36,161 nucleotides of DNA from a virus. Position 1 is the stretch's first letter, and each line of letters begins with the position of its first letter. The stretch lies in IMG/VR virus record IMGVR_UViG_3300002448_000161, one strand, 5' to 3'. The notes beneath the pieces are model-generated. The model was not told the DNA's origin, ran no database searches, and saw nothing but the letters and a program-made list of their open reading frames with translations. The translations under genes and the position numbers were made by a program. Of the stretch, positions 2,328-22,012 are shown piece after piece.

Positions 2328-2337
2328 TTTCTTTTGT

Positions 2338-5345: not shown

Positions 5346-5402
5346 GGCCCGTGGGCGGCTTCGGGTTGTTCGTTTGCCTCGCTGTTCGAGTCCGTCAATT
5401 TT

Positions 5403-5654: not shown

Positions 5655-5676
5655 GGCGGCGCCTCTCGTTTCTGCT

Positions 5677-5955
5677 CTACCTTCTCTGTTCCGCGAGGGC
5701 CATTGCGTCGGCTCTCATCCGGGTGTGGTCGATGGTCAGGGTGAACGGGCTTTCCAGCTCCTGCTGTCCCAGCTGCCGGCGCTCGAGGCTGCTGCCGACG
5801 GTGAGGTGCCTCTGGCTGCCGTCGGGCGCGGTGCAGCTGAGGGTCAGGCAGGTCAGTTCCACGTTGGTGTAGCCTCTTTCCTCCATCGCCTGGTGCAATG
5901 CCGCCGCGCTGCTGCTGGTCGCGTCCGCGTTGATTGTTATCTTTTCGACTGCCAT
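5677..5955 (-). CDS. Hypothetical protein
   Basis: ATG 5955 with AGGAGG RBS. Confidence 0.55.
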   Translation of the reverse strand: MAVEKITINADATSSSAAALHQAMEERGYTNVELTCLTLSCTAPDGSQRHLTVGSSLERRQLGQQELESPFTLTIDHTRMRADAMALAEQRR

Positions 5956-5968
5956 CTGCGGCCTCCTG

Positions 5969-6511
5969 TTAGTCGGTCTCAGTTTCCCGTTCGGTGCACC
6001 CGGCAGTGACGGCCTGGTGCCAGTTCTCCGCGTCCCGCTTGAGGCTTTCCAGGCGGCTGGCCGCCTTTCTCCGGCCGCCCGTGTCGTTTCGGCCGTGGGC
6101 CACGTCCATTTCCAGGTCGTGGAGCGCATCCACCGCGTGAACCACGTGGTTGTTGAGGTTCATCATGCGCTGTACGGCCTCTCCGTAGGTCGCGCATCTG
6201 CCCGGCCCAGGCATTCCGTCGCTGTCCGTCTTCGGGGCTTCCGCCGGGCCTCCCAGCTCGGTGGTCAGGTCGTTGGCCTGGTTGTAGAGCCGGGCCAGCG
6301 CTTTCAGGTATTGGCCGTGGCTGGCTCCCGAGCTATCCAGCTGTTTTCCCTCCCAGGCTATGTTGCGGGCTATCATGGCCGCGAACCGGTTCAGCGCTTC
6401 GGGCCCCTGGGGCGCGTCCCTTCGCGTCTCGGGCGTTCTTCTGGCCTCGGCGAGCATGGCCTCCAGCGGGGGCGGCGTGTATTCTTCCTGGTCCCGTCGC
6501 TGTTCGTACAC
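5969..6511 (-). CDS. Hypothetical protein
   Basis: 180-aa helical ORF, AAGGAGG RBS. Confidence 0.6.
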   Translation of the reverse strand: MYEQRRDQEEYTPPPLEAMLAEARRTPETRRDAPQGPEALNRFAAMIARNIAWEGKQLDSSGASHGQYLKALARLYNQANDLTTELGGPAEAPKTDSDGMPGPGRCATYGEAVQRMMNLNNHVVHAVDALHDLEMDVAHGRNDTGGRRKAASRLESLKRDAENWHQAVTAGCTERETETD

Positions 6512-6578
6512 GGCATTTCCTCCTTTGGTGTCGCCTTGGTCCCGCAGGGTTTCGGGCCCGGTTACTGCTGGCTTACCG

Positions 6579-7223
6579 TTAGAGCTCGTACCACAGCCCG
6601 TTTCTTGAGCTGGCGAGTATGGATCCGTCGGGCATTGTCCAGCTGGGTTGCTGTCCGTCGGTGTTCCGTTTTCCCGCGTTGTCCAGGTAGTTGTCGGTTA
6701 CTTCGAACCGGGCCGGGTCTACGCCGCTGTGGAAGGCGGCCAGCGCTTCATGCAGCCTTTCGGCCTGTGTGTTGCGGACCGCGTCCGTGGCTTCGTAGGC
6801 TTCCTGTATCACCTTCAGGATCGTTGCCCGCCCGCACTCGGTCCGGTAATGCCGGCAGTGGTTGCAGCCGTCGTTCAGGCAGCTGAGGTCAAATTCACAG
6901 ATGATTTCCCATGCTGTGAAGCTCTCCTGGCACTCCGGGCAGGGCAGGCGGAAGCAGTGGCAGTTCAGCACGCTGCGTTCTCCCTCGCAGGTGCAGTCGT
7001 CACTTTTCGGTATCGTCCAGGAGTTGTCGAGCAGATTAACCCAGACTTTCTTGTCCTGGCTGTTGAATTCCAGGCCGTCGAACCGGTAGATGGCGACGCT
7101 TATTCCCTCATGGTTGGTTACGCTGGAGGCGTTAGCTTCCAGCTCTTTCACCTGCGCTTCGCTCAGGGTGATCCGGTCGTCCAGGAAGTCATAGGGGTGA
7201 CTCTTCGTTGTCTTCGTTGTCAT
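6579..7223 (-). CDS. Hypothetical Cys-rich protein
   Basis: Several CxC and CxxC motifs; AAGGAG RBS. Confidence 0.6.
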   Translation of the reverse strand: MTTKTTKSHPYDFLDDRITLSEAQVKELEANASSVTNHEGISVAIYRFDGLEFNSQDKKVWVNLLDNSWTIPKSDDCTCEGERSVLNCHCFRLPCPECQESFTAWEIICEFDLSCLNDGCNHCRHYRTECGRATILKVIQEAYEATDAVRNTQAERLHEALAAFHSGVDPARFEVTDNYLDNAGKRNTDGQQPSWTMPDGSILASSRNGLWYEL

Positions 7224-7241
7224 CGTTGGGGTTAGTTCTCC

Positions 7242-7586
7242 TTACTGCGAGTCGCGTTTGACCGTGCATTGGGCCCGGGTCCGGCCGTCCAGGGTGTTGT
7301 GCAGCCCGAGGGCATCCTTTATCGTTGCCCGGCAGGCGGTGCCGTCCTTGCTGTGGACGGTGACCGTCTCTCCGGGCTGCGGCAGCGGCCGGTTCCAATC
7401 CCAGTAGGCCTGGATCTTGTTGATCCCTTCGGCCCGGTTCCAGGTCCAGTAACCTGGGGCCAGCTCCGGGCCTCCGCCTTTATGTTCGCAGTCGCCGCAG
7501 ATTGTTTCGTCGGGCCGCGCCCGGAAGGTCCTTTGGCAGAGGGCGGATGCTTCACGCTGGCTGCGTCGGGTGTATTCCTGGTTCAT
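7242..7586 (-). CDS. Hypothetical protein
   Basis: ATG 7586 overlaps the rnhA stop (ATGA coupling). Confidence 0.55.
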   Translation of the reverse strand: MNQEYTRRSQREASALCQRTFRARPDETICGDCEHKGGGPELAPGYWTWNRAEGINKIQAYWDWNRPLPQPGETVTVHSKDGTACRATIKDALGLHNTLDGRTRAQCTVKRDSQ

Positions 7587-8278
7587 GGCCGGATTTCGTT
7601 TCGGAGCATGGCCAGCCGCCTCTTGAAGTCCGGGAAGTCGCTGGCGTTCTCGGCCTCGTCGAGTATGGCGCTGAACAGCGCCTCGGCGCTTATACCCGGG
7701 CTGGCGGCCGGTTCCTGAACTTCCTGCCGGCTGGACGGCCTGTTGTCGCCTTCCTCGGTCAGTCCGCTGGGGTCTTCGACCATGCTGCGGGGGTTTCCCA
7801 CGCTGAGCCAGTAGTCGCTGCAGGTCCTGGCGAACTGGGACTCCCGCACGGCCAGGCGGTCGGCCTCCTCGTTGAGCGGATTCCCGTCGTGGCCTCTGAC
7901 CCAGGTGAAGCTGGCGTCCACCTTTTTGGTGACTTCGAGCAACGCCTCCCACAGGTCGCGGTTGAGCACTTCCTTTTTCTGGGCGGTCTTCCACCCGTTC
8001 CGCTGCCAGCCGGCCAGCCAGCCGTCGTTGAAGGCTTTGGTGAGATATTGGGAATCGCTGTAGACCTCCACCCTGGGCCGGTTCTCGCCTTCGATGTCCG
8101 CGATGACCTTCAGGCCTTCAAGCACTGCGGCCAGCTCCATCCGGTTGTTCGTTGTCTTCGGGTCGCCGCCGGTGGCGTAGATCCGGTCGCGGCCGTCTCT
8201 TATGATGATTCCCGCGAACCCGCCCGGTCCCGGGTTTCCCTTACAGGCTCCGTCGGTGTGTAGTTCGTAGGTTGCCAT
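7583..8278 (-). CDS. rnhA: Ribonuclease HI with C-terminal extension
   Basis: TDGACKGNPGPGG, TTNNRMEL, YSDSQY, WQRNGWKT, WVRGHDGNPLNEEADRLA; all catalytic acidic residues present. Confidence 0.95.
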   Translation of the reverse strand: MATYELHTDGACKGNPGPGGFAGIIIRDGRDRIYATGGDPKTTNNRMELAAVLEGLKVIADIEGENRPRVEVYSDSQYLTKAFNDGWLAGWQRNGWKTAQKKEVLNRDLWEALLEVTKKVDASFTWVRGHDGNPLNEEADRLAVRESQFARTCSDYWLSVGNPRSMVEDPSGLTEEGDNRPSSRQEVQEPAASPGISAEALFSAILDEAENASDFPDFKRRLAMLRNEIRP

Positions 8279-8776: not shown

Positions 8777-8958
8777 TTTTGCTGCTCCTCTGCCCGCTCT
8801 GGCGGCCGGCTATTCATTGTGGTTGTGAGACCTTGCTCCGCGCCAGTGGCACGTGGCATAGCGCCCTGGGGCGCGTCAGTCCTGGCTGCCTTCCTGGCGC
8901 CGGCTCCCGGCGCCGGCTTTTTCCAGAACTCCTCGTATTTTGCCCTTCTTCTGAAGAT
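8704..8958 (-). pseudogene. 3' part of the HTH gene interrupted by element 1
   Basis: Reads IFRRRAKYEEFWKK..., in frame with 10483-10735 once the element and one repeat are removed. Confidence 0.75.
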
Positions 8959-9135
8959 TAGAAAATTGCGAAACTCTCTGCTTTTGGCTGGGGCCTCTTG
9001 CCTGAGGGTTTTTGCGGTCCTGCGTGCAGCGCCGGTCACGGTCTGGAAGCTAACGCTTCCAGCCCTGCCTTATGCGCTTGCTTCCCCGTGGGGCTTCCGG
9101 CGGCACGTCCAGGCCGTCCCGAGGGACGGTTTTCT
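8959..9135 (-). ncRNA. Putative omega-RNA scaffold of element 1 (boundaries approximate)
   Basis: Conserved with elements 2 and 3; overlaps the tnpB 3' end; hairpins at 9043-9062 and 9114-9129. Confidence 0.6.
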
Positions 9136-10388
9136 GCCCTGGCCAGGAGATTTAATCCCTGGCGCCGGATGTTTTCCGCCGCGTTGACGTCGGCGTTGGC
9201 GGTGTGGCCGCAGTCGGTGCATTTGAACAATGCCTGAGACCTGCGGTTCGCTTCGTCTATGGATCCGCATTTACCGCATAGCCGGCTGGTGTTAATTGCA
9301 GGCACTGGTACCAGGGAACGGCTGTACCACTGGCATTTGTACTCCAGCTTCTGGCGTATCCCGTACCAGCCCTGGAACAGGATGGACCGGTTGAGTCCGG
9401 ATTTCTGCCGGACGTTGGTGCCGGGCTTGTCCACTGTGCCTCTGGCTGACCTTACCATGTTGGAAATGCGGGTGTCCTCGATGCAGACTACCTGGTGGTC
9501 TTTGACCAGTTGTGATGTAATCCGGTGCTGGAGTCCGGCAAGGGAGTCCTGGCGTTTTTGCTCTACTCTTCGGAGCATGGCCAGGGACTTGAGGTAGTTG
9601 TGGGAGGGGCCATCGGTCCAGCGGAATCTCCGCCTGGTCCGGCTGTTTGAGAGCTTGTGGGATACGAACCGGGCTCGGCCGTCCTTCAGGGCGGAGTCCC
9701 GCTGCCTTTGCATTTTCCGCCGCAGTCTTCGCATCACCTTCCGGTGTTCTCTGTCCTTCAGCCCGGGCACCTGGGCAACTTGTCCTGTTTGGTTCACGGC
9801 GGTCAGCAGGTGCTTGACCCCGGGGTCTATGCCCACCGACTGGTTTGGAGCCGGTTCCGGGGTTATTTCCTGGTTGAAGACCAGCAGGACGTTGTAGCGA
9901 CTCGGAGTGCGGGTAATCCGGATTATTCTGGGCTGGACCCCTTCAGGCAGACGGTTATTCGGCTTGAATTGGAGTCTGGGCAGCCCCTTGATGTGGACGT
10001 AACCCTTCCTGCCGTCCTCGGACAGCTTCAGGTGGCCTACTGCTGGCTCGGAGATCTCCATGGTATTAAGCCGGTAGGGGCTGCTGGTGCGGGGCCTGCC
10101 GCGCTCGGGTCTCTTAAAGTATTCGCTGAAGGAGGTGTTGACCCGTCTGGCTGCTGATGCCAGCAGTCTGCGGGCGTAGCGGTTATAGACCGGGTCGTTC
10201 CGGTTCAGGTCCGTCAGGTGGGCATTCTGCAGTTTCAGTGACCACCTTCTCCTGTGGGAGCCGGTGGCCGTATTGCGGTGCCGGATGAGGGCGTTGTACA
10301 GGTTTCCCATATCCAGCATGGCCTGTTCCAGCTGACGATAGCCGTGGCTGCTGGCAGTGGCCCGGTATTTCAGGGTGGCGGTCTGCAT
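9036..10388 (-). CDS. tnpB: RNA-guided endonuclease TnpB (450 aa, intact RuvC)
   Basis: RuvC-I VGIDPG, RuvC-II CIED, GLNRSIL.QGW, Zn finger CGKC/CTDC, RuvC-III NADVNAAENI; ATG 10388 aligns with the other copies. Confidence 0.95.
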   Translation of the reverse strand: MQTATLKYRATASSHGYRQLEQAMLDMGNLYNALIRHRNTATGSHRRRWSLKLQNAHLTDLNRNDPVYNRYARRLLASAARRVNTSFSEYFKRPERGRPRTSSPYRLNTMEISEPAVGHLKLSEDGRKGYVHIKGLPRLQFKPNNRLPEGVQPRIIRITRTPSRYNVLLVFNQEITPEPAPNQSVGIDPGVKHLLTAVNQTGQVAQVPGLKDREHRKVMRRLRRKMQRQRDSALKDGRARFVSHKLSNSRTRRRFRWTDGPSHNYLKSLAMLRRVEQKRQDSLAGLQHRITSQLVKDHQVVCIEDTRISNMVRSARGTVDKPGTNVRQKSGLNRSILFQGWYGIRQKLEYKCQWYSRSLVPVPAINTSRLCGKCGSIDEANRRSQALFKCTDCGHTANADVNAAENIRRQGLNLLARAENRPSGRPGRAAGSPTGKQAHKAGLEALASRP

Positions 10389-10482
10389 GTACGCCTCTGC
10401 TGGGGAGTTTATCTGGCTAGGCTTGCTTTCAGCTACGGCCAACTGTCAGTTCCTCTGTTTTTCAGAGTTTCGCAATTTTCTG

Positions 10483-10735
10483 TGAAGATGGTCCTGGCGG
10501 TTATGTTGAACTTGGCGGCGGCCTCATTCACTGTCAGGCCCTCGGCCTCAATGCACTCCCGCAGGTCCCGGTCCTGGATCGGTTTGATCAGGGTGCTGTC
10601 CTCCAGGCGGCATACGGGAAAGGGGCATCGCAGGCATGACGGGGCCAGGTGGCATCCCTGGTTTGGTGGCGGGGTCCCGAACCCCGGGAGTGCGTCGATG
10701 GGGACCAACGGCAGGGTCCTGTCTTGGCTGGTCAA
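10483..10735 (-). pseudogene. 5' part of a Cys-cluster + HTH gene interrupted by element 1
   Basis: GCHLAPSCLRCPFPVC...GLTVNEAAAKFNITARTIF; breaks inside the predicted HTH recognition helix exactly at the direct repeat. Confidence 0.8.
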
Positions 10736-10771
10736 TCCTGGCGCTCCTTGTGTCGCTTCTCGAGCCCTTGT

Positions 10772-11122
10772 CTAGGGCGGGGCCACGCCCTGCAGGCGGT
10801 CGCCGGGGTTTCGGAATTCGTGAAGCAGGGAGTCGATGTCCTCGAGGGCGTCGCCCACGCTGTTGTGCGAGCGGGTCTCGTAGTTGTCGGTGTCCCACGG
10901 CCGGTAGGCCGCCACCTTTATGACTTTGTCCTCTCGATCGGCGGTCGCCTGTCGACCGGCGCTGGTTGTGGTCACCTCGGCGATTCTCTGGCTGTGCTCC
11001 TGGTCCTTGACCAGGGCGTAGCCGTGCACTATCTCGTAGGCCAGGTTCGGCCCGGTAAGGTCGTGGACCCCGTCGATCAGCCTCTGGATGACGGGGCAGC
11101 TGGTTTCAGGTTTTTTGTTCAA
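10772..11122 (-). CDS. Hypothetical protein
   Basis: TTG 11122 overlaps the upstream stop; AAGGAG RBS. Confidence 0.5.
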   Translation of the reverse strand: MNKKPETSCPVIQRLIDGVHDLTGPNLAYEIVHGYALVKDQEHSQRIAEVTTTSAGRQATADREDKVIKVAAYRPWDTDNYETRSHNSVGDALEDIDSLLHEFRNPGDRLQGVAPP

Positions 11123-11520
11123 GGCTTGTGATCTCCTTCCTCCCGGCCGTCCTCGGCCTTGCGGCGCAGGGCTTCGGCCCTTCCCTTTGCGGTAAGCTGC
11201 CAGCCGCCGTCCTTCTCGTAGGCCAGGCCGTTCTTTTCCATCTCGATCATGGTTTCCTTCACGGCTTCCAGGTTGTGCTGGTGGAGCCCTTTTTCCACCG
11301 TCTCGCCGAAGGTCTTGGTGCTCAGGGACTCCGGCGCCTCCGGGTGTCGGTCGCACCAGTGCTGCAGCTGTTCCGATACCATCTCGGCCATGAGTTCCCA
11401 CTGGCTGGGGGCAACCTTGCTTATGTCCTTCGGGTTAACGGTCTCCAGCGCCCACGCCCATGCCCCCTTGGCTGCGTCGAGCGCTATTTCCTGGGCGTCG
11501 ATGTATTCGGTTATATCCAT
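11119..11520 (-). CDS. Hypothetical protein with C-terminal winged-helix-like segment
   Basis: EMEKNGLAYEKDGGWQLTAKG. Confidence 0.6.
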   Translation of the reverse strand: MDITEYIDAQEIALDAAKGAWAWALETVNPKDISKVAPSQWELMAEMVSEQLQHWCDRHPEAPESLSTKTFGETVEKGLHQHNLEAVKETMIEMEKNGLAYEKDGGWQLTAKGRAEALRRKAEDGREEGDHKP

Positions 11521-11527
11521 TCAGCTT

Positions 11528-12037
11528 TCAGTCTCCGTCGATGTGGCTGAGTTTGTGCCCTGGCACCTGGTGGATGTGGAGCTCCTGGCCGCAGGTCTCG
11601 CAGGGTTCGGTCCGGACTTCGTATCCCCGGTATTTTGCTACCACGGTTACCACTGTCCCGGCTGGCATTTCCGTCCACGCCGTTCCCAGGGGGACGTTGG
11701 CCCTGAATCTCTTCCCCAGTATGGTTTCGGCTTGGCCGTCGGACTTTCGTTCGTCCAGGACGTTTGCTGCGTTCAGCAGCGGTCCGGCTCCGCTGGATTC
11801 CGGTGTCGGGCTGTCGCTGAGGTCAACGGTGTCCGCTTTGACCCGGGATAGTATGACGACCATGCCGCACGCGGGGCATGGGTCTGTCTTGACGCTCAGG
11901 CCGCTCTGCTTTCCGGTTACGGTGCCGGTGGTCCCTTGCTTCATGGTCAAGCCCCGGTTGGCTATGTCCTGGTTCAGCACTATCCGCACCGGACTGGTCC
12001 CGTTGGCCCTGATTTTCAGGTATGTCTTCTGGTCCAC
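11528..12037 (-). CDS. Protein with two tandem beta-rich CxxC domains
   Basis: GTG 12037 with AAGGAG RBS; repeats ..GTTGTVTGKQSGLSVKTDPCPACG and ..GTVVTVVAKYRGYEVRTEPCETCG. Confidence 0.65.
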   Translation of the reverse strand: MDQKTYLKIRANGTSPVRIVLNQDIANRGLTMKQGTTGTVTGKQSGLSVKTDPCPACGMVVILSRVKADTVDLSDSPTPESSGAGPLLNAANVLDERKSDGQAETILGKRFRANVPLGTAWTEMPAGTVVTVVAKYRGYEVRTEPCETCGQELHIHQVPGHKLSHIDGD

Positions 12038-12039
12038 CG

Positions 12040-12121
12040 TCAGTTCTCCTTTTGGCTTGGTCTGCCCGCTGTGGTCAGCGGGTTGTCCGGGCAGCCGGTG
12101 TTGGTCCAGTATTCGCAATCC
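12040..12121 (-). pseudogene. 3' part of the small Cys gene interrupted by element 2
   Basis: The empty site reads ..HEPDCEYWTNTGCPDNPLTTAGRPSQKEN*, ending 2 nt before the next start codon. Confidence 0.7.
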
Positions 12122-12265
12122 TGGAAAATTCCGCTACTGGTGTAGTGGGTTCGCACGTGCAGCGCTAGCCGTTGGGCGTAGTCTCAACTACGCCTTCCTG
12201 CCTGGTGCGCTTTTTTCCTTGGGGATTCCGGCGGCACGCCCAGGCGGTCCCGAGGGATCGTTTTC
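12122..12265 (-). ncRNA. Putative omega-RNA scaffold of element 2 (boundaries approximate)
   Basis: Shares CGTGCAGCGC and TTCCGGCGGCACG with the other copies; 8-bp hairpin at 12175-12194 in the equivalent position. Confidence 0.55.
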
Positions 12266-13537
12266 TGCCCTGGCCAGGAGGTTCAGCCCCTGGCGCCGGA
12301 TATTTTCTGCCGCGTTGACGTCGGCGTTGGAGGTGTGACCGCAGTCGGTGCATTTGAATAGCGACTGCGATCTGCGGTTTCCTGCTTCAATTGAACCGCA
12401 TTGGCCGCATAGGCGGCTGGTGTTTATTGCCGGAACCGCTATGAAGTCTCTTTCGTACCAGTGGCACTTGTATTCCAGCTTGGTTCTCACGCCGTACCAG
12501 CCCTGGAACAGGATGGAGCGGTTGAGTCCTGCCTTCTGCCGGACGTTGGTGCCGGGGTTTTCCACCGTTCCACGGGCCGACCTGACCATGTTTGATATGC
12601 GGGTATCCTCGATGCAGACGACTTGGTGGTCTTTAACCAGTTGCGAAGTAATCCGGTGCTGGAGACCTGCAAGGGAGTCCTGGCGTTTCTGCTCTACTTT
12701 TCGGAGCTGGGCCAGGGTCTTGAGGTAGTTGCGGGATGGGCCTTCGGTCCACCGGTATCTTCGCTTCGTCCGTCCGTTTCCCAGCCTTTGAGAGACGAAC
12801 CGGGCCCGTCCGTCCTTCAGGGCGGAGTCCCGTTGTCGTTGCATCTTTCTGCGGAGTCTCCGCATTACCTTCCGGTGCTGGTTGTCCTTCAGCCCGGGTA
12901 CCTGGGTGGTCTCTCCTGACTCATTCACGCTGGTAAGCAGGTGTTTCACCCCCGGGTCTATTCCCACTGAATTCTTTGGAGCGGGAACTCTGGCAACTTC
13001 TTGGTTGAAGACCAGCAGGACGTTGAAGCGCCTGGGGGTGCGGGTTATCCGGATGATGCGGGGCTGCTCCTTCGGGGGCAGCCGCTCGTCAGTTCTGAAT
13101 GACACCCTTGGCAGTCCTTTGACGTGGATGTAACCATTCCTGCCGTCTTTGGACAGTTTCAGGTGGGCTACGGCCGGCTCGCTTATCTCCAGCGTATTGA
13201 ACCTGTAGGGGTTGTTGGTACCTGGCCTGCTGCGCTCGGGTCTCTTGAAGTATTCGCTGAAGGAGGTGTTGACCCTTTTGGCGGTGGATACCAGCAGCCG
13301 ACGGGCGTACTGGTTATAGACGGGGTCATTTCGGTGCATGTCCGTCAGGTGGGCGTTCTGCAGTTTCAGGGTCCACTGTCTCCGGTGGGAGCCGGTGGCG
13401 GTCAGCCGGTGTCGTATCAGGGCGTTGTATAGATAGCCCATATCCAGCATGGTCTGTTCCAGCTGGCGGTAGCCGTGCCTGCTGGCGGTGGCCCTGTATC
13501 TGAGAGTCGTTTTGACCTGTCGGTTATGGTCTGTCAT
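12188..13537 (-). CDS. tnpB: RNA-guided endonuclease TnpB (449 aa, intact RuvC)
   Basis: VGIDPG, CIED, CGQC/CTDC, NADVNAAENI. Confidence 0.95.
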   Translation of the reverse strand: MTDHNRQVKTTLRYRATASRHGYRQLEQTMLDMGYLYNALIRHRLTATGSHRRQWTLKLQNAHLTDMHRNDPVYNQYARRLLVSTAKRVNTSFSEYFKRPERSRPGTNNPYRFNTLEISEPAVAHLKLSKDGRNGYIHVKGLPRVSFRTDERLPPKEQPRIIRITRTPRRFNVLLVFNQEVARVPAPKNSVGIDPGVKHLLTSVNESGETTQVPGLKDNQHRKVMRRLRRKMQRQRDSALKDGRARFVSQRLGNGRTKRRYRWTEGPSRNYLKTLAQLRKVEQKRQDSLAGLQHRITSQLVKDHQVVCIEDTRISNMVRSARGTVENPGTNVRQKAGLNRSILFQGWYGVRTKLEYKCHWYERDFIAVPAINTSRLCGQCGSIEAGNRRSQSLFKCTDCGHTSNADVNAAENIRRQGLNLLARAENDPSGPPGRAAGIPKEKSAPGRKA

Positions 13538-13619
13538 TGCTTTCTCTGCTGTCGCCGGGAGTTTGTGCGAGTTAACCCGCTGCTGTTTGGTTAGAGTTTT
13601 CCGAGTAGCGGAATTTTCT

Positions 13620-13843
13620 CAATCCGGCTCGTGGTCGCTGCCGTCGAACCAGGTGGGGAGTCCCTCTCCGTCCTGCTCACATTCGCCGAACCCGTCGGTG
13701 CCGTCTGAGGCGGCGCGAGCGCCGCATCTGCTGCATGTGGGGGTCAGCTCTGCGCGTTCGGCTGTGATCCAGCTTTTCATATCCCAGTCATGGGGTCCCT
13801 TCGTTATCTGAGCGGGGTCGCTTATGTGGTTGCTCCCTGTCAT
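13620..13843 (-). pseudogene. 5' part of the small CxxC gene interrupted by element 2
   Basis: Its TGA is created at the element junction; continues in frame at 12115 in the reconstructed empty site. Confidence 0.7.
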
Positions 13844-13861
13844 TTTATCTTTGTCCTGCCT

Positions 13862-14242
13862 TCAGGCGGCTTTCGCTTGCGGCCGTGCCGCCATCCGTCT
13901 CTCCGCTTTGCTGGCTTCTTGGTCCAGTTCCTGGGCCAGCGCCTCCTGCTCTGCGAGGGCCTCGCCCGTGTTTGCTAGCCAGCGCTCGGCGCATCCCGTC
14001 AGGACGCTCCAAAGCGTCTCACGCCGGAGTTCGACCTGGGTCTGCGTCATCATGAGTCCGTGGCCCCTCTGGTCTGCTGCCAGCATCAGGTAGCAGTCGG
14101 CGTGGCCGGTTTCACCGCACATGGGGCACTGCGTGCAGGGACATCCTTCCTCGGTTTCTCCGCAGGTCTCGCATTTGAAATTGTTATCCGGCGGGCCGTT
14201 GCACCCCGGGGGATATCTTCCGTCAAAGATTGGACTGGTCAC
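13862..14242 (-). CDS. Hypothetical Cys-rich protein
   Basis: CETC..CPCTQCPMC..HADC; AAAGGAG RBS. Confidence 0.6.
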   Translation of the reverse strand: MTSPIFDGRYPPGCNGPPDNNFKCETCGETEEGCPCTQCPMCGETGHADCYLMLAADQRGHGLMMTQTQVELRRETLWSVLTGCAERWLANTGEALAEQEALAQELDQEASKAERRMAARPQAKAA

Positions 14243-14287
14243 CGGTACGGGCTCCTTTCTGTAACTGTTGTCTTGTTTCCCCTAGGC

Positions 14288-14563
14288 TCAGGGCAGGACG
14301 TCGCTCATCAATTTGAGAACGTCGTCCACGAGACTTCTCAGGCCGGCGCGTATTTTCTCCTCGTCCCGTTCCTCCTGGAGGCCGTCGGCCCGGTTCCGCC
14401 ACGCGCCCAGCAGGCGCGGCGCGTTGCTGTGGTTCATAATCAGGTTGATCCGTCTTTCGATGCGGCTGGCCATTCTTCTGAGCTCGTCCAGCGGCGCCTG
14501 ATCGATGGAGTTGTGGTACTTCTCCTGTTTCTCCTGGTTTACGGGCAGTACGGTCATGGTCAT
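14288..14563 (-). CDS. Hypothetical helical protein
   Basis: ATG 14563 with AGGAGGAG RBS. Confidence 0.55.
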   Translation of the reverse strand: MTMTVLPVNQEKQEKYHNSIDQAPLDELRRMASRIERRINLIMNHSNAPRLLGAWRNRADGLQEERDEEKIRAGLRSLVDDVLKLMSDVLP

Positions 14564-14766
14564 GGCGATTCTCTCCTCCTTGAATCTTCGATTTGCGGGG
14601 CTTGCCGCCCCCTTGTCTACCGTGTCCGTGATTCGGCTTCTGTCCGTGCCGGTTGACTCAGTCCTATTTCCGGCCCGGTCCGCTTGCGGCCGGGCTAAGC
14701 GCGGGTGTCTGGCCCGCCCGCTGGCCGTCTCCTTGGGAGCGGTCTTTGGTCGGGGAGTTCCCGGCG

Positions 14767-15060
14767 TCAGCCTGCCTTCAGGCGCTCCAGTTCCTGGAGC
14801 AGATAATGTTGCGGTAGGAACTCGTGCATGTGTTCCAGGTACCACAGATTGAACGGGTTGGGCCTCACCTCACCGTTGGCCTGGTATTCGGCCGGGAGTT
14901 TCTCCCACAGGTGGCGGCCGTGGTGGCGCCACATTTCCAGCCCCTCGTTCCGTTGGAAGCTTTGAGTGCATTCCGGGCAACGTCTTTCCCCAGTTATCTC
15001 TTCGCCGGACTCATTTGCTGCTGTGGTTGCGGGTTGTGCCAGTGTTTTTGGTTCGTTCAT
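14767..15060 (-). CDS. Hypothetical protein (CxxC...HH)
   Basis: 97-aa ORF. Confidence 0.5.
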   Translation of the reverse strand: MNEPKTLAQPATTAANESGEEITGERRCPECTQSFQRNEGLEMWRHHGRHLWEKLPAEYQANGEVRPNPFNLWYLEHMHEFLPQHYLLQELERLKAG

Positions 15061-15152
15061 TCCTTGTTCCCTGGTACCCTCCTTCTCTTGATCGCCCTGG
15101 TGTCGGCATGCTGGGCGTGATTCTCCGGGCTATACGGGTTCGTGTTTATGTC

Positions 15153-15182
15153 AAAACGAAGGGCCCCCGTTTGTCGGGGGCC
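15153..15182 (-). terminator. Intrinsic terminator
   Basis: Minus strand GGCCCCCG-ACAAA-CGGGGGCC followed by CTTCGTTTT, just after the 15217 stop. Confidence 0.65.
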
Positions 15183-15216
15183 TTATCTCCTTTTCTGTCC
15201 GGGTTTAGTTGGAGTG

Positions 15217-16890
15217 TTAGTTCGGGGTCAGCGTGCCCATCATGCTGCCGCTCAGCGTCCCTCCGGTCCTGGTACACGCTGTTGTGGTTGCGTTGCAGTC
15301 ATTTCTCGCGGGCAGCAGCAGGACCATTGTGGACCTCGGCTGTCCTGCGACCTTTATCCGCCAGTGGGCGCTGTTCCGGTGGATCGGCCAGGCCTCGGTG
15401 ACGCTGCCGTTGATGATCTGGAACATACCGTCTCTTGGATGGCCGTTCCCGACCCTAACCGGTTCGCTGAACGTGAATTCCAGGTAGGTCCCTGCTCCTG
15501 AGTTATGGCGGTCCGTTTTTTCGCTCCACGCGGCCGTCAGCGGCATCCTGAGCAGCTTGCTGCCGTTCTGGACTGAGATCTGGCTTAGCCTGGGGTCCGC
15601 GTGGTTGCCCGGGTGTCAATCAGGGACCATGCGTCTGGCGCCGTGTCGGGCTGGTACCTGAGGGTAACCGTGTCGCCTTTGTATATGGCCCGTTTCAGGT
15701 GGATCGTTACGCGTCTTCCGCTGTAGGTCAGGGACGTGGCCTGTATCCTCGCGTCGTTGACGCGGATCTGCAGGCTGTCGAGACCCCGCTGGTCCGGCGC
15801 CAGGGGTTCCATGTTGGAGCCGAAGCTCAGCCTTATGGCCTCGCCGTTGGCGGTTACGCTCTGCTGGTAGAGCCAGGGCTTGGTCGACTGGGCTCTGGCC
15901 CAGCGCTCGTTGGAGGGCGGTCCCGTTTCGGTTCCACTCTTTGCCTTGACCCGGACGCTGTAGCGTTGTCCCTGAACCAGATCCCGCAGGATGGCCACTG
16001 CTACCGAGTTTTCGGGCTCGACCAGGGTGCTATGCACCTGGGTCGGGTCGTTCCACGCGGCGGTTACCGGCTTCCATTGCAGGAGGTACCCGTCGATCTC
16101 GTCCTTCTTTTCCGTGGGCGGGTACCAGATGGCGTATATCGCGCCGGCGGCGGTTATCAGCTGCAGCTGTTCTGGCCTCCCTGGGGCGGTGGATGTCGCC
16201 GGCTCCTCACCGTCGTTGTCGTCCAGTCTTGCCCTTACCGTGAGTCCGCTTTCCCATCGGGCCAGCGTGTCGTAGGGCATTTCCGATTCCCAGGCGAGCT
16301 TGCTGCCGTCGGCTCCCTCCGCTTCGTTGAATTGCAGCGGCGCGTTGTCCAGGTAGAGGGTCCACGTCGCGTAGTCTTCCGTTGGGTCTGCCGCTGTCCA
16401 GCCTCCGTGGGCGTTTTGGCGGTAGAGCGTGGCTATTACCTGGCTGGTGCAGGGATCCACGCCGTGGATGCCTCCGGGGTGGTCAGCCGGGTTGCTGCTG
16501 GGCTTCAGGGTCAGGGTGTTGAGCTGGTAGGTCCTGCCCTCGTGGTAAAGGTTGTGTTTACCCGTCGCAACGGAACCGGCAGGGACTCGGCGTAGGTCAG
16601 CTTGAATTCGTCCCAGTCCTGCAGGCCGAGGTCCGCCATGGGCAGTCGCCGCACCAGAGGGTGCAGGGCTCCAGTGTTCTGACCTTCAGCTCTGCGCTCA
16701 CGTTGGAATACCTGGCTCCCGATCCCTGGTGGGTCAGTGTTACGGTCTCGTCCAGCAGGTCTTCGTCCGCGGCTGCGTGGAGGGTGATGCGTTGTCCCGT
16801 TCTCCAGTTGCCGCTCGTGAAGTGTAGTTGGGTTGGCTTTACCCCCAGGTTTATTCCGCTGTGTCCGGCTATTGTGACGGTGGTCCCGCC
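15217..16890 (-). pseudogene. 5'-truncated, frameshifted surface protein (Ig-like, fibronectin III, SwmB-like and C-terminal Cys-paired domains)
   Basis: LHFTSGNWRTGQRITL..DETVTLTH; FN3-like PGRP..WYPP..IDGYLLQWK..YSVRVKA; SwmB-like VTANGEAIRLSF..VTLRY; frame changes near 16645, 16575 and 15612. Confidence 0.7.
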
Positions 16891-16899
16891 CGTTCCGGT

Positions 16900-17386
16900 T
16901 CCCTCTGTCGTGTTGGTGGTGATTGTCCTGTGGGCAATCTTCCAGCTTGGTTTCCCCCTGCGGCACTTTCTGGTCCCTGGGAATGTGAGCTGGACTGAGG
17001 AGGGGCATCTTTTTGCTTGGCATATGATGCTCAGGAGCAAGTCTGAGGATGTGACCGTTATGGTTGAGCGGGATGACGGCTCGGTTACTTCCTATTCCCT
17101 TACCGATGAGGATCTGCCGGTTCCTCTTACCAGACGTCATCGTGATACCATTTCGGGCCGCGCTTATATAATGGTCCAGTATGCTCATGCGGTAGCGGAG
17201 CAACCCGGCGTTGAGGGTGTTTATTTTGACGTATGGGCCAGTCTCAACAGCCGTGAGTGGAGGCTCCTTATTGATCCGGAGGTGGATCTTTCCAAAGAGC
17301 CTCTTTTCTGGTTGGGTCATGCTCCGTGGGTTTTCCATGAGGATGAGGCGCTGAGGCGTGTTTATGCGGAGCCCGGGGGGTCCTGA
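16900..17386 (+). pseudogene. C-terminal fragment of an HTTM / vitamin K-dependent gamma-carboxylase-like protein
   Basis: FQLGFPLRHFLVPGNVSWTEEGHLFAWHMMLRSK...VWASLN.R..RLLIDPEVDL..PWV; N-terminal membrane domain absent. Confidence 0.8.
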
Positions 17387-17469
17387 AATTCTAACGTAGT
17401 TGGGTGGGTCTGGGGGGGCAAAGATGGTAATATCGGGGTGTAGTTATACCCCTCTGGAGGCTCTTTTCT

Positions 17470-17700
17470 ATGTCAGTTGAGTGGTCAGTTGCGACCGTTG
17501 ATATTGCCGTCGGCCGGGATGCCGACGGCGTCGATTACCTTATTTCCTGGTGTCCCGCCCGGGTGACCGTTGAGAGCGGCGAACCTTTCGGCTCCGAATT
17601 TTTTCCAATCTTTACCGGCGGTTCGTTTATGGTTACCAGTGAGGGCGAGCGGCTCGGTGTCTACGAGACTCTGGAGGCCGCCCAGGCCTCTATTCCTTAA
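17470..17700 (+). CDS. Hypothetical protein
   Basis: GGAGG RBS at 17456-17460; TGGTAATAT extended -10-like motif upstream. Confidence 0.55.
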   Translation: MSVEWSVATVDIAVGRDADGVDYLISWCPARVTVESGEPFGSEFFPIFTGGSFMVTSEGERLGVYETLEAAQASIP

Positions 17701-17736
17701 ACCTCGTAGTTGTTTTTTCCGCTGGGTGACTTTGTC

Positions 17737-18117
17737 TTAAATGATGGTCCCGTTGTACCGGTTCAGGGTCTTGCGGACGTCGTTCCGGGCCCAGGCCAGG
17801 TCGCGCCTGTAGATGTCCCGGTACTTCTGCCGGTGTTTCACCGCTCTGTCCAGCGTCCGGCGCCCTGCCTCCTGTGCGCTGATCTGCGCCACGCTGGTCA
17901 TCATCAGGAACCATTCGCAGCCGTTGCCCCGGCCGCTGGCATGGTCGGCGACTACATTTGCAGCGCTGGTGGCGTTCAGGTATCCCAGGCTCTCGCAGAT
18001 AAGGTATGCGGTCAGCAGCGGGTACCTGTTGAGCGCCTGGGCGCCGGTCATTGATTTGTGGTCCCTTGGCCTTGGCTCCAGCGTCGCTGTGGGCCTGTCA
18101 GTTCGATTTTCGTTCAT
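17737..18117 (-). CDS. Hypothetical protein
   Basis: 126-aa ORF. Confidence 0.55.
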   Translation of the reverse strand: MNENRTDRPTATLEPRPRDHKSMTGAQALNRYPLLTAYLICESLGYLNATSAANVVADHASGRGNGCEWFLMMTSVAQISAQEAGRRTLDRAVKHRQKYRDIYRRDLAWARNDVRKTLNRYNGTII

Positions 18118-18163
18118 CCTCGCTCCGGGTTCTTGTTTTGATTCCTTTCCGGTCGGCTGGCCT

Positions 18164-18988
18164 TTACTGGTAGCTGGCTGCGTTGTAGTCCAGCACCTTC
18201 TCCAGGAAGTCGTCCATTGCTTGGTCGGTGGTAAGGCCGTTGGCTATCGCGAAGGCGTAGCCTGCCGTCAGCGCGTCGCCCGCTCCGATGAAGTCGCTTC
18301 CGGCCGGTACTTTTATGGCCGGTAGGTGCCTCCTGTTTCCGTTCATCCAGAAGTCGGTCCGGCCGCTGGCCCCTTGGGTTACAAAGACCCGCGAGATTCC
18401 CATTTTCTGTGCGGGATTGTCGTCGGGGTCGAACCTCATTCTCCTGGCGAGAGCCTGTAGCTCGGCCTGGTTCATTGTCGCTGCGGTGATGCCTCTCATC
18501 CGTCCCAGCCTGGGTACCATTCCTTTCGTCGTTGCGTTGGCTATTATGTTACCGCCGGTTACGGCCAGCGCTGACAGGTCGTTGACGTCCAGGTAGAGGG
18601 AGCAGAGCACCATGTCGTAGTCCTTCCTAATGTCGCGGATTTCCTGTGCTATGCTGCCCGGGACTGGGAAGTGGCCCTTGGTGGCCGTCGGCTCCCCGTT
18701 TCTCACGCTTATGCGGGCCGTCCCTTCCCTGATGGCAGGTGGCCGTCCGTCGGCCAGTATCGCCGTTACTCCCAGGGTCGTTAGTGCTTCGTTCAGTCTT
18801 TCCTGCTGGGTGGGCGTTACTGGCGCCAGGAGTGTCACGTTGGCCTCTGCCCTGGCTAATTCCCGGGCCATGATGCCTCCGACGCCTCCGACTTGCTGTC
18901 GGGTCCTGCCGTCTTCCCTGGTTACGGTTTCCTCCATGACGTTGCCTACGACGAGGAATTTTGGTTCCCTGTTGGTGTTGGTTGTCAT
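18164..18988 (-). CDS. PfkB/ribokinase-family kinase
   Basis: LVVGNV, QVGGVGG, MNQAEL, VFVTQGASG, DFIGAGDA signature. Confidence 0.85.
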   Translation of the reverse strand: MTTNTNREPKFLVVGNVMEETVTREDGRTRQQVGGVGGIMARELARAEANVTLLAPVTPTQQERLNEALTTLGVTAILADGRPPAIREGTARISVRNGEPTATKGHFPVPGSIAQEIRDIRKDYDMVLCSLYLDVNDLSALAVTGGNIIANATTKGMVPRLGRMRGITAATMNQAELQALARRMRFDPDDNPAQKMGISRVFVTQGASGRTDFWMNGNRRHLPAIKVPAGSDFIGAGDALTAGYAFAIANGLTTDQAMDDFLEKVLDYNAASYQ

Positions 18989-19007
18989 CCCGTGGTCCCG
19001 CCTCCTC

Positions 19008-19349
19008 TTACCAGTTCCGCTTGCGGTGGAGTTTGCTCTTCAGCCAATCGAGCCCGTCCGGTGTACCGCACTTCTCCGGCCATCCTTTCAATGTTTCTTC
19101 CAGGCTCTGGTAGAAAATCTGGCCCGGGTCGGCGGGCCAGTATCCAAGCACGGTGATCGGCTCATTTAAGCCGTGGGTCCTTTGGTATATTTCTTCCGTG
19201 TCACGTATGTAGGAGACCTCAGCGGTGGTTCCGAGCCTGTCGATGCGCCACATTACTCCGTACAGGCATTCCCTGCTTGCTCGCCTTCGCGGGTCGTCGT
19301 TGTAGAAGTCCTCGAGGCTGGCGAAATCTATCTCGGTGTTTTGGCTCAT
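19008..19349 (-). CDS. Hypothetical protein
   Basis: 113-aa ORF, GAGGAG RBS. Confidence 0.6.
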   Translation of the reverse strand: MSQNTEIDFASLEDFYNDDPRRRASRECLYGVMWRIDRLGTTAEVSYIRDTEEIYQRTHGLNEPITVLGYWPADPGQIFYQSLEETLKGWPEKCGTPDGLDWLKSKLHRKRNW

Positions 19350-19376
19350 CTAGGCCGTCTCCTCAGGCCCCGCCGG

Positions 19377-20051
19377 TCAGGCGGCCATTTCGTTGTTGGC
19401 TCCGTTGGGTCTTTGGACTTCTGAGCTGTGGACGGTGAAGTTGTTGTAACTGTCGTCCTCGAGCACCAGGTGCTCCTTTCCCAGCAGCGTTATGACGTTA
19501 TAAAGCCTCCCCTCGAACCGTACCGTCTGGCCGGTTTTATAGTCATGTTTTGGCAGCGTGCTGATGGGCTCCGCTGGAGGGGCAGTTGCCCTGCAGGGCT
19601 TTGCAACCTCTTGGTTGCCCGTTTCCTCTTCGTAGGTATCTTCGTCTGTTCGGGGTTCTGCCCGTCCTGTGTCCTTGCCTGGGTCGCTGTCACTTTCCGG
19701 GGCGTTGGCCGGGCCGATTTCCAGTGAGAACGCGTCGTCAGGCGCAGGCGCCGTTTTCTCTGTCGTCTGTGGCGTTCCCTTGGCGGCCCGCTGGCTGGGG
19801 GCTCTCCTTGAGGTCTTCTGCGCGGCGGCCTCTCTTGTGGTCGCCGTGGCTGTCCTGTTCTTGTGGCGCCGGTTGGCGGTTTTCTCGAAGGCCGGGACCT
19901 GGTTGATCACGGCGCTCTGCGCCAGTCTGAATATGGCTGCTGCCTCGCTGGCTGTGTATACGTGGCCGTCGTAGGTGCCTTGGGCCATGGCCGTGGCCCT
20001 CTGTATTTCCTCCGGGCTCAGGTAACGGCGCGGCTTGGGTAGCTGGTACAT
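19377..20051 (-). CDS. Hypothetical protein (HTH-like N-terminus, beta-rich C-terminus)
   Basis: YTASEAAAIFRLAQSAV; GGAGGAG RBS. Confidence 0.6.
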   Translation of the reverse strand: MYQLPKPRRYLSPEEIQRATAMAQGTYDGHVYTASEAAAIFRLAQSAVINQVPAFEKTANRRHKNRTATATTREAAAQKTSRRAPSQRAAKGTPQTTEKTAPAPDDAFSLEIGPANAPESDSDPGKDTGRAEPRTDEDTYEEETGNQEVAKPCRATAPPAEPISTLPKHDYKTGQTVRFEGRLYNVITLLGKEHLVLEDDSYNNFTVHSSEVQRPNGANNEMAA

Positions 20052-20079
20052 TGCTCCTCCTTCCTGTTCTCTCTGATTC

Positions 20080-20255
20080 TAGAAAATTGCGAAACTCTCT
20101 GCTGTTGGCCGGGGCCGTTGCCCTGAGGGTGTTCGCGGTCCTGCGTGCAGCGCCGGTCACGGTCTGGAAGCTATTGCTTCCAGTTCTCCCTTATGCGCTT
20201 GCTTCCCCGTAGGGCTTCCGGCGGCACGCCCAGGTGGTCCATTGGGACCGTTTTC
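20080..20255 (-). ncRNA. Putative omega-RNA scaffold of element 3 (boundaries approximate)
   Basis: Close match to 8959-9135; hairpin CTGGAAGC-TATT-GCTTCCAG at 20164-20183. Confidence 0.6.
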
Positions 20256-21508
20256 TGCCCTGGCCAGGAGGTTTAATCCCTGGCGCCGGATGTTTTCCGC
20301 CGCGTTGACGTCGGCGTTGGCGCAGTGGCCGCAGTCCCGACATTGAAAGAGCGACTGCGACCTGCGGTTTGTCGGGTCAACCGAACCGCACTTTCTACAA
20401 AGCGGCTGGTGTTCATGGCCGGAACGGTTATGAAGTCTCTGTCATACCACCAGCACTTGTATTTCAGCTTCTGCCGGACGCCGTACCAGCCTTGGAAGAG
20501 GATGGAGCGGTTTAGGCCGGCCTTCTGGCGCACGTTGGTGCCGGGGCTCTCTGCCGTGCCCCTGGCCGACCTGACCATGTTGGAAATGCGCGTGTCTTCG
20601 ATGCAGATTATCTGGTGGTCTCTGACCAGTTTGCTGGTAATTCTGTGTTGGAGCCCTGTAAGGGAGTCCTGGCGTTTCTGCTCTACTCGTCGGAGCGTAG
20701 CCAGGGTCTTGAGGTAGTTATGGGATGGGCCGTCGGTCCACCGGAATCTTTGCTTGGTGCGCCCGTTGGATATTTTTTGGGAAGTGAAGCGGGCCCGTCC
20801 GTCCTTCAGGGCGGAGTCCCGCTGCCGTTGCATCCTGCGCTTCAAGCGTCTCATAACCTTCCTGTGTTGCTGGTCCTTCAGCCCGGGGATCTGGGTCACT
20901 TGTCTTGATTCATCTACGGCGGTAAGCAGGTGTTTCACTCCGGGGTCAATGCCCACTGAGTGGTTGGCCGCTGGTACTGTTGGAATCTCCTGATTGAAGA
21001 CCAGCAGGACGTTGAAGCGCCTTGGGGTGCGGGTGATGCGGATAATCCTGGGCTGTTCCTTGCGAGGCAGCCGCCCGTCAATTCTGAAGGACAGCCGGGG
21101 CAGCCCTTTGACGTGGATGTGACCCTTCCTCCCATCTTTAGAGACCTTCAGGTGATTGACTGCTGGTTCGGAGAGTTCCAGGGTATTGCACCGGTAGGGG
21201 CTGCTGGTGCGTGGCTTGCCCCGCTCTGGCGTTTTGAAGTATTCGTTGAAGGCGGTATTGACCCTTTTAGCAGTGGATTCCAGCAGGCGACGGGAGTAGC
21301 CGTTATAGACGGGGTCATTTCGTCGCAGGTCTGTGAGGTGGGCGGTCTGCAGCTTGAGGGACCACCTTCTCTTGTGGGAGCCGGAAGCGGCCATGCGGTG
21401 TCGTATCAGGGCGTTCCGTAGGTGTCCCATGTGGAGCATGGCCTGTTCCAGCTGGCGGTAGCCGTGGCTGGTGGTGGCTGCCCTGTATTTCAGGGTGGTG
21501 GTCTGCAT
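20157..21508 (-). pseudogene. tnpB: TnpB with a 1-nt deletion near 20400 (real or sequencing error)
   Basis: 1352 nt versus 1353 in element 1; the shifted frame continues CRKCGSVDPTNRRSQSLFQCRDCGHCANADVNAAENI...ASRP*. Confidence 0.9.
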
Positions 21509-21631
21509 TAACCCCCTCTTTTGTCCAGTGTATCTGGCCTTCCGAGCATTCAGCTACGGGCAACTGTCAGTCTCTCTGCTTTTCAGAGTTTCGCAATTTT
21601 CCCTGATTCGGCGCCGTCGCGCCGCTGTCAA

Positions 21632-22012
21632 TTAGGTATTCGGTACTTCGGCTTCCTGCCGGCAGGCGTGGCAGCCTTTCTTTCTGCCGTCGCCGCTGGC
21701 GTATCTGTAGGGCCGGTGTCTTTCGGGGCAGTCGGGCATCAGTGCCTTGAAGTTTTCGTCGGAGCAGGTCCCGCAGGCGTAGAACAACACGCGGTCTCGC
21801 TCGAATATGGGTGTGGGCTGCCCGTTCTGCAGTTCGAAGATCAGCCTTGTCCCGCCCATGCTGGCGCTGTGTATGCGACACGGGGTGGCGGTTACTCCCC
21901 GCCTGCGCAGCAGGCGCGGTCCCTCTCCTTCTTCCGTGTTCAGCAGCGCTGGGGTTTCCCCTCCGGATCTGCCGGTAACTATTTCTGTCGTGTCGAAGGC
22001 TTTGTCCGTCAA
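21632..22012 (-). CDS. Hypothetical Cys-rich protein
   Basis: CGTC..CHAC; AAAGGAG RBS. Confidence 0.55.
   Translation of the reverse strand: MTDKAFDTTEIVTGRSGGETPALLNTEEGEGPRLLRRRGVTATPCRIHSASMGGTRLIFELQNGQPTPIFERDRVLFYACGTCSDENFKALMPDCPERHRPYRYASGDGRKKGCHACRQEAEVPNT

Follow-up and report, generated by a model that had tools for sequence, protein, structure and literature searches.

A C-ending motif next to the target duplications of tnpB elements with IS1182-like inverted repeats as a likely target-adjacent motif

A 2026 review (PMC13565253) considers it unclear for what reason and by what means RNA-guided nucleases are maintained in prokaryotic DDE transposons, for which the target is duplicated and the choice of a target-adjacent motif (TAM) is not needed. 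The question is raised directly by the IMG/VR virus record IMGVR_UViG_3300002448_000161, a DNA stretch of 36,161 nt (hereafter referred to as the window) that corresponds to the minus strand of contig C23 of genome G000 and holds three elements of about 1.5 kb (elements 1–3), each with tnpB as its sole gene and terminal inverted repeats at both ends. An initial annotation had proposed that a GNRCC motif shared by the 5' flanks of their duplications is the TAM of the encoded TnpB. Our sequence comparison indicates that GNRCC, with a core of RCC and a C at position −1 in 11/11 sites, is likely the TnpB TAM, that the first duplicated base, directly after the motif on the empty site, is the predicted start of the guide, and that the motif has probably been enriched by homing. 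The motif is TnpB-specific and reproducible, and the kind of element is known, its geometry being undescribed and its activity predicted.

Within the window, the 5-mers upstream of the duplications are GGACC (10490–10494), GAGCC (13626–13630) and GCGCC (21610–21614), all on the minus strand, and both these coordinates and the three 16-nt guides (predicted at 8943–8958, 12106–12121 and 20064–20079 as ATCTTCAGAAGAAGGG, GGATTGCGAATACTGG and GAATCAGAGAGAACAG, respectively) agree exactly with the initial annotation. The element boundaries, which had been drawn from AGAAAATT, had to be moved out by one base: duplications around miniature inverted-repeat transposable elements (MITEs) and cargo elements with the same ends place the terminus at the base preceding AGAAAATT, which gives window duplications of 7, 5 and 6 bp and leaves motif and guides unaffected. 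The register starting at AGAAAATT was rejected because in 175/184 control ends the first base is a G located one position further out. A fourth copy, element 0 (1–254, minus strand), consists of an upstream end and the start of tnpB and is cut off by the contig end; its GAGGC (261–265), which had been tied to a 7-bp duplication, needs one of 6 bp, and since the right end is not assembled with the left end, the motif there cannot be scored and does not serve as evidence. Three or more shared positions occur in 0.4% of 200,000 random 5-mer triplets from the window strand, so that the window alone is suggestive and it is the test outside the window that makes the motif significant.

For this test, TnpB relatives were gathered from 203 genomes by three queries (27 genomes at E 1e-75 with alignment), ends were called by weight matrix and a duplication was taken as an exact match of at least 5 bp. 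This gave 11 TnpB sites with an exact duplication (one of them, L340, holding a later insertion inside), of which 8 lie outside the window and form the test set, the three discovery sites being left out. The controls are 92 paired elements without tnpB and with an exact duplication, a sample of close pairs among the matches listed, to which L332 supplies two nested elements. The 5-mers upstream of the test sites (GAACC, GAGCC, GAACC, GGACC, CAACC, ACACC, GACCC and GAGTC) include GNRCC in 4, RCC in 6 and CC in 7 cases, as opposed to 2, 13 and 34 of the 184 control sides (Fisher p of 2e-5, 1e-5 and 9e-5, respectively), and the difference is retained when either side of a control element is allowed to count (3e-4, 5e-4 and 4e-3). 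Relative to the local same-strand background (GNRCC 1.4%, RCC 5.9%, CC about 11%), the binomial p is 3e-6 for GNRCC and 1e-6 for RCC. The motif therefore persists in a larger set, on which the initial annotation had made its proposal depend.

Taken over all 11 sites, C is found at −1 in 11 and at −2 in 10, a purine at −3 in 10 and G at −5 in 9. Full GNRCC is present in 7/11, and the motif is better written as G-a-R-C-C then purine. The first duplicated base is a purine in 11/11 TnpB sites (9 A, 2 G) and in 101/184 controls, and the signal is one-sided, with CC in 10/11 upstream flanks and 0/11 downstream flanks. Duplications of TnpB elements measure 5–10 bp; the two longest (9 and 10 bp, at L058 and L061) are both at sites lacking the full motif; from these two cases only, an element with a long duplication following an intact TAM may be prone to self-targeting. 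At L206 and L218 (both in G190) the first 8 nt of the right flanks are identical (AAACTACA) and the left flanks different. Three loose left flanks from single contigs, whose duplication and cargo are undefined, were not counted (GAGCC 7 nt out, AAGCC 6 nt out and one without the motif).

The elements with the same ends that lack tnpB provide a built-in control, in that MITEs and cargo elements make the nuclease motif separable from the preference of the transposase; in IS605 and IS607 the two coincide (10.1101/2023.03.14.532601; 10.1101/2023.11.20.567912). Control elements located in TnpB-holding genomes carry GNRCC on 0/42 and 0/28 sides, which means that the motif tracks tnpB and not the ends. 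Transposase-carrying elements (n = 10, scored by eye) show it on 0/20 sides, and the two end-subtype classes of the controls on 1/80 and 1/104 sides. Among TnpB elements, it is seen in both well-supported inverted-repeat clades of a quick tree (13 and 5 of 44 rows, with about 30% mutual identity).

The second line of evidence concerns the start of the guide. Twenty right ends share a four-helix fold in which 95.7% of 440 cells are paired and 14/22 pairs show changes on both sides; 0/500 shuffles score as high and no slid register comes near, although the structure was read from the same sequences on which it was scored, which favours it over slid controls. A pseudoknot joins the purine run in the stem 1 loop, at the end of the tnpB reading frame, to the right repeat at −2 to −7. 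This helix is 96.7% paired and varies in step with the repeat subtype (AGAAAA/TTTTCT, AGGAGA/TCTCCT, AGACGA/TCGTCT and AGGCGA/TCGCCT), its support coming mainly from the 13-member clade, while in the other clade it is partial or was not located. Position −1 pairs in 3/24. In ISDra2, positions −5 to −3 take part in the pseudoknot, −1A is stacked and the guide comes next (PMC10097598); here, too, −1 is mostly unpaired, and the helix stops one base before the element end, so that duplication base 1 is the predicted first base of the guide. This agrees with the initial assumption that the guide derives from the flank just past the downstream end, and covariation supports, computationally, a structured right-end omegaRNA with a terminal pseudoknot. 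A first guess at the pseudoknot (GGAA after CCGCC) was only 70% paired and was dropped for the co-varying helix. Folded as single sequences, the element 2 RNA is not above shuffles (z −1.2) and two relatives are (z −3.9 and −5.4); Rfam gave no match to the predicted omegaRNA. Together, the restriction of the motif to tnpB elements and the guide start at duplication base 1 make GNRCC likely the TAM.

This geometry has a consequence for where the nuclease could cut. The only perfect match to each guide in G000 is the right junction of the element itself, where TTCTA or TTCCA stands before it instead of the motif; at the left junction the motif is present, and contiguous guide matches number only 6–7 in the window and 5–10 across all 11 sites. 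ISDra2 TnpB needs about 12 TAM-proximal pairs (PMC10097598). Filled sites would thus escape, and the earlier proposition that only the empty allele carries both motif and full target is supported for the window elements in G000.

How insertions come to adjoin the motif lay outside the scope of the initial annotation. We consider it on balance probable that the solo tnpB elements in IS1182-like repeats are moved in trans, that GNRCC is the TAM with the guide read from duplication base 1, and that only an element's own empty site is cut and homed into. The transposase would insert near sigma-70 promoters or with little preference, regardless of the motif, and the minority of tnpB insertions landing directly behind a TAM would become working homing elements whose target is the TAM, the duplication and the right flank, which would be contiguous, and hence cut, on the empty site. 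Such elements may then spread or persist via break-induced recombination, including within genes (the insertion of elements 1 and 2 into reading frames is counted for homing), and would come to dominate what is assembled. Homing or retention as in IS605, where TnpB retention and gene drive have been shown (10.1101/2023.03.14.532601; PMC11870625), would in effect act as a filter on insertions made by the transposase. As for empty sites, no joint skipping an element was found in 4 runs; two contigs (runs X19 and X20) align over 21603–21720 only, as an empty element-3 site would, and were not counted.

What the transposase prefers by itself can be read from the controls. In 30/92, TTGA lies 8–9 nt outside the duplication and faces away, the distance being 8 nt mostly at GCGAA-type ends and 9 nt mostly at CGCTA-type ends. 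When these sites are combined with the TnpB site L061 (n = 31), C comes next in 28/31 and a TAnnnT box follows at a spacer of 16–18 in 23/31; TTGAC-spacer-TAnnnT is the sigma-70 promoter consensus. The promoter distance is fixed to the outer edge of the duplication, the length of which varies from 5 to 11. With one third of the controls 8–9 nt from a sigma-70 −35 box, the transposase appears not to supply the motif. L061 is the sole TnpB site of the promoter type and also the sole TnpB site without CC. The promoter-adjacent IS1182-like elements and MITEs, with outward-facing TTGAC-N17-TAnnnT promoters, were noted among the loci L029, L030, L032, L033, L037, L039, L050, L225–L263 and L332–L353. 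Promoter targeting by an IS1182-like enzyme, for which we found no report in the open literature searched (which misses most subscription papers), is a finding in its own right.

This insertion behaviour works like that of p-MULT3 and p-MULT4 without making the element a member of either. The p-MULT3 (TnGBS/ISLre2) and some p-MULT4 (ISKra4) transposases insert upstream of sigma-A/70 −35 boxes, 13–17 bp from the element end (PMC3942029). The family described here shares the fixed distance to the −35 box (13–16 bp from the end in 25/106 sides, with 30/92 non-TnpB elements promoter-linked). Those enzymes are, however, of the Mutator type with 8–9 bp duplications (PMC3942029), whereas here the enzyme has DUF772 and DDE_Tnp_1 domains and the distance is set from the outer edge of a variable duplication. 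A Mutator/ISKra4 transposase as the partner, which the promoter spacing had suggested, was rejected since the gene inside the repeats encodes a DUF772 + DDE_Tnp_1 protein.

Several observations weigh against the homing account. The test set is 8 sites, 4 of which lack full GNRCC (GAGTC, GACCC, ACACC and CAACC), and selection would have to enrich sites well over tenfold from a background of 1–6%. No exact duplication of at least 5 bp was found in 15/25 two-ended TnpB elements, compared to 16/69 controls, and the 20 left flanks that lack a duplication show no enrichment of GNRCC (1/20, p 0.61), with RCC borderline (10/20, p 0.06) and CC followed by a purine weakly enriched (11/20, p 0.03). Recombination between co-oriented copies would give such hybrids, and decay is another candidate cause. 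The controls themselves lean to C at −1 (76/184) and to CC (18% vs. a background of about 11%), and avoidance of promoters by TnpB elements is not significant (1/11 vs. 30/92, p 0.10). The right terminal base, A or G in 25/31 TnpB right ends vs. 9/184 non-canonical control ends, counts in favour but is not a specific argument since TnpB left ends are relaxed too (10/31 non-G). A composite at L265 has AGACC before its outer duplication, a site that its inner guide cannot target. Finally, the cognate transposase was not found in G000 (E 1e-40, E 1e-70 and tblastn 1e-3), an assembly that is 97% complete and breaks at repeats, so that the movement of elements 1–3 in trans, likely by a DDE transposase, is inferred. 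Elements with both ends and no duplication are located in G000 on C56 (35202–36777 and 41479–43052) and at L053, L055, L057, L059 and L071, some with RCC 6–8 nt before the left end.

The outer AGACC of L265 is the one observation that favours either of two alternatives over homing. In one, TAM and guide are the same and the TnpB-RNA complex steers the transpososome to TAM-adjacent DNA, taking over the role of promoter-bound RNA polymerase. Both routes tie one edge of the duplication to a landmark (the −35 box at a distance of 8–9 nt, or the motif at 0 nt) while its length floats between 5 and 11, and the near-complete enrichment (CC in 10/11) is demanding for selection alone. A diffusible protein should, however, also shift the MITEs and cargo elements of the same genomes, where GNRCC is on 0/42 and 0/28 sides; L265 is a single case with a truncated inner tnpB, RCC being on 7% of control sides anyway, and the RuvC site has been kept intact as expected for cutting. 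We regard steering as rather improbable. If true, every new copy would be born with a working homing guide, and the system would represent a minimal precursor, without CRISPR, of guided transposition of the Cas12k type. In the other, to which we give similarly little weight, an unseen transposase variant has a preference for GNRCC and sets the orientation of the element, the same TAM having arisen in TnpB by co-evolution. A match between transposase and nuclease motifs is the rule in IS605 and IS607 (10.1101/2023.03.14.532601; 10.1101/2023.11.20.567912), the mobiliser of elements 1–3 was not found in G000, and both the lean of the controls to C at −1 and the fit of the L265 outer site to RCC would be accounted for. 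The motif-bearing TnpB elements use at least four end subtypes, though, the two scored subtype classes of the controls have GNRCC on just 1/80 and 1/104 sides, and, of 9 control ends whose terminal base is other than G, 2 have CC at the opposite flank.

A geometry closer to that of Fanzor1, with the TAM extending into the duplication (e.g., RCC plus the first purine) and the guide starting at least one base later, seems quite unlikely. The invariant purine at the first duplicated base (11/11 vs. 101/184 controls) and the inclusion of the 5' duplication in the Fanzor1 TAM (PMC13565253) speak for it; against this, pairing of −2 to −7 with −1 free is the ISDra2 arrangement in which the guide comes after −1, the flanks are A-rich on this strand, and the duplications have no other sequence in common. 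We hold it to be very improbable that the motif reflects base composition or sampling instead of a TAM, even with the small n, the GC-rich DNA and the missing GNRCC signal in left flanks without a duplication, given the local background frequencies and binomial p values reported above, the one-sidedness of the signal and the exclusion of the three discovery sites from the test set.

Among known systems, the closest in organisation are the TnpB branches DDE-1 to DDE-6, which lie in inverted terminal repeats and include solo copies (Altae-Tran et al., 2023, PMC10691335). As in those branches, the 3' end of tnpB is within 250 bp of the element end and solo copies share their ends with transposase-bearing elements (PMC10691335). 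The partners of DDE-1 to DDE-6 are IS630 (PMC10691335) and, per review PMC13565253, ISL2 and IS1031, whereas here the partner is IS1182-like; in the accessible text of PMC10691335, IS1182 appears only in a supplementary profile list, and the section on transposase association gives no TAM, guide start or duplication geometry. We found no report of an IS1182-linked TnpB, or of this TAM/duplication geometry in prokaryotes, though subscription papers and supplements may cover the clade.

With the TnpBs of IS605/IS1341 (ISDra2, ISGst2) and IS607 (CboTnpB), the proteins and RNAs share the RuvC triad, the zinc finger, an omegaRNA overlapping the end of the reading frame, a pseudoknot to the last scaffold bases, a right-flank guide and a left-flank TAM. 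IS605 and IS607 elements lack both inverted repeats and duplications, and it is their transposase that selects the TAM; here, in contrast, there are repeats, duplications of 5–10 bp, a pseudoknot built on the repeat and a motif separated from the left end by one duplication, and elements that share these ends without carrying tnpB ignore the motif. The window elements accordingly fall outside IS200/IS605 (including IS1341), which is marked by a Y1 transposase and hairpin ends, being 1.5-kb elements with tnpB alone, inverted repeats and 5–7 bp duplications, and outside IS607, with its serine recombinase, GG termini and lack of duplication, as their ends are ..CTA and ..CCA and duplications are present. 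Fanzor1, of eukaryotic DDE transposons, likewise combines a TnpB-family nuclease with inverted repeats and duplications, the 5' duplication being read as the TAM, the 3' copy lying in the scaffold and the pseudoknot being lost (PMC13565253). Here the duplication is instead the predicted guide seed, the pseudoknot has been retained, and E310, the RuvC-II glutamate, is at the canonical position and not next to the zinc finger, which begins at C377, 67 residues further on in the TnpB of element 2.

The candidate motif is GC-rich, as the initial annotation had stressed for its use in genome editing; it is not unique in this, since TGGG is known for CboTnpB (10.1101/2023.11.20.567912), and C-rich protospacer-adjacent motifs (PAMs) are reported for some Cas12f (PMC12216341). 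The best solved-structure match of the clade profile is RdCas12n (PDB 9J09, E 1.5e-41, C-terminal part), which is CRISPR-associated with an A-rich PAM (PMC12216341), while there is no array at the window's elements. Nearby TnpB relatives without inverted repeats at L069 (2926–3505), L066, L067 and L068 are followed by CRISPR-like repeats, in L069 an array of about 10 repeats directly 3' of the gene, whose spacers gave no usable target; these relatives are possible TnpB-to-Cas12 intermediates near the repeat-bearing clades.

For the problem posed by nucleases in DDE transposons, the arrangement offers a testable solution in which the TAM lies outside the duplication, the duplication serves as guide seed and the scaffold pseudoknot is rebuilt on, and co-varies with, the inverted repeat. 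For nucleases of 450 aa that have 175 relatives at E 1e-60 or better, it also predicts a TAM ending in C and a complete omegaRNA.

All features of elements 1–3 are on the minus strand of the window. Element 1 (8959–10482, 1524 bp, tnpB only, ends CAGAAAATTGCGAAACTCT ... AGAGTTTCGCAATTTTCTA) interrupts an open reading frame with a helix-turn-helix-like stretch (by eye); its removal in silico with one duplication restores 96+82 open codons, and loose contig ends from other runs stop at its boundaries, 8959 and 10482. The tnpB gene (9036–10442) has a TTG start, with ATG at 10388, and an intact RuvC D/E/D and C4 zinc finger. Its candidate TAM precedes the upstream copy of the duplication ATCTTCA (7 bp, 10483–10489; downstream copy 8952–8958), with which the predicted guide begins. 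The predicted scaffold (8959–9142) overlaps the end of the reading frame, the pseudoknot strand AGAAAA (9130–9135) pairing with 8960–8965. Element 2 (12122–13620, 1499 bp, ends GAGAAAATTCCGCTACT ... AGTAGCGGAATTTTCCA) also interrupts a reading frame; with element and one duplication excised, 80+25 open codons span the empty junction. Its tnpB (12188–13537) encodes 449 aa with D194/E310/D406 intact and is 81% identical to that of element 1. Candidate TAM and duplication (GGATT, 5 bp, 13621–13625; downstream copy 12117–12121) together occupy 13621–13630, and predicted scaffold (12122–12273) and guide 12106–12273, with the pseudoknot strand at 12261–12266 and one A-C mismatch at −2. Element 3 (20080–21603, 1524 bp) is intergenic and 79% identical to element 1. 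Its tnpB (20273–21508) has a frameshift near 20399 in this assembly, which is not shared by contigs of three other runs with one extra base. The candidate TAM and duplication GAATCA (6 bp, 21604–21609; downstream copy 20074–20079) span 21604–21614, and the predicted scaffold (20080–20263, pseudoknot strand 20251–20256) and guide 20064–20263. Contigs of other runs diverge from the window at 8959, 10482, 20080 and 21601–21603. The TnpBs of elements 1 and 2 have GIDPG/CIEDT/ADVNA motifs and four cysteines, i.e., a RuvC triad and zinc finger, and score 170–178 bits against NF040570 of NCBIfam (cut-off 100).

The repeat GAGARAATTSCGMWACTC is present in 42/151 genomes of this Dehalococcoidia family, with zero matches to a reversed control sequence, and the same ends bound IS1182-like DDE transposases, cargo elements and 161-bp MITEs across the family. 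Both the DUF772 and DDE_Tnp_1 domains of the protein encoded inside the repeats are above Pfam cut-offs; its best NCBIfam model is IS1182 at 151–153 bits, below the cut-off of 270, for which reason we label it IS1182-like. Pfam and NCBIfam returned only IS4/IS5/IS1182-type models for it and none of Mutator type, and no solved structure matched. Transposase relatives occur in 80/203 genomes, the repeat stands upstream of the gene in the 8 closest of 30 transposase loci examined, and 10 elements have a transposase, both ends and a duplication. A search of a viral collection gave one weak TnpB match and 46 single repeat-like matches, none with TnpB or transposase, and of 80 loci in a metagenome scan, excluded from all counts, 78 are distant TnpBs, with a single repeat-like match in 6 and a pair in none. 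The L265 composite (1562–8117, in G182) is 6.5 kb long with an 8-bp duplication, a split IS1182-like transposase and, nested within, the truncated tnpB element, which has ends of its own. In G000, this repeat family is also represented by cargo elements and orphan ends on C13, C24 (18695–20445), C28 and C43, and the cargo element on C13 has a two-gene pair that resembles, by eye, a PIN toxin-antitoxin module.

As to the setting, the runs that best match the window DNA are sponge metagenomes and the closest TnpB relatives belong to Dehalococcoidia or Chloroflexota. Contig C23 has an AT skew of 0.36, strong strand bias and a phage- or plasmid-like gene set. Together with C28, C29, C34 and C56 it makes up about 285 kb of G000 at skews of 0.22–0.36, the large contigs being near zero; these high-skew contigs hold most TnpB copies and look like a large mobile island. 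The region 15585–17386 of the window, uncovered by compared contigs of related runs, contains genes for a fibronectin type III protein and, in the opposite orientation, for a fragment of a vitamin K-dependent carboxylase lumenal domain. Nearly all window genes are on one strand, and they include NAD-dependent ligase, RNase H, SRAP, NADAR, SLOG and RNA-ligase-like genes.

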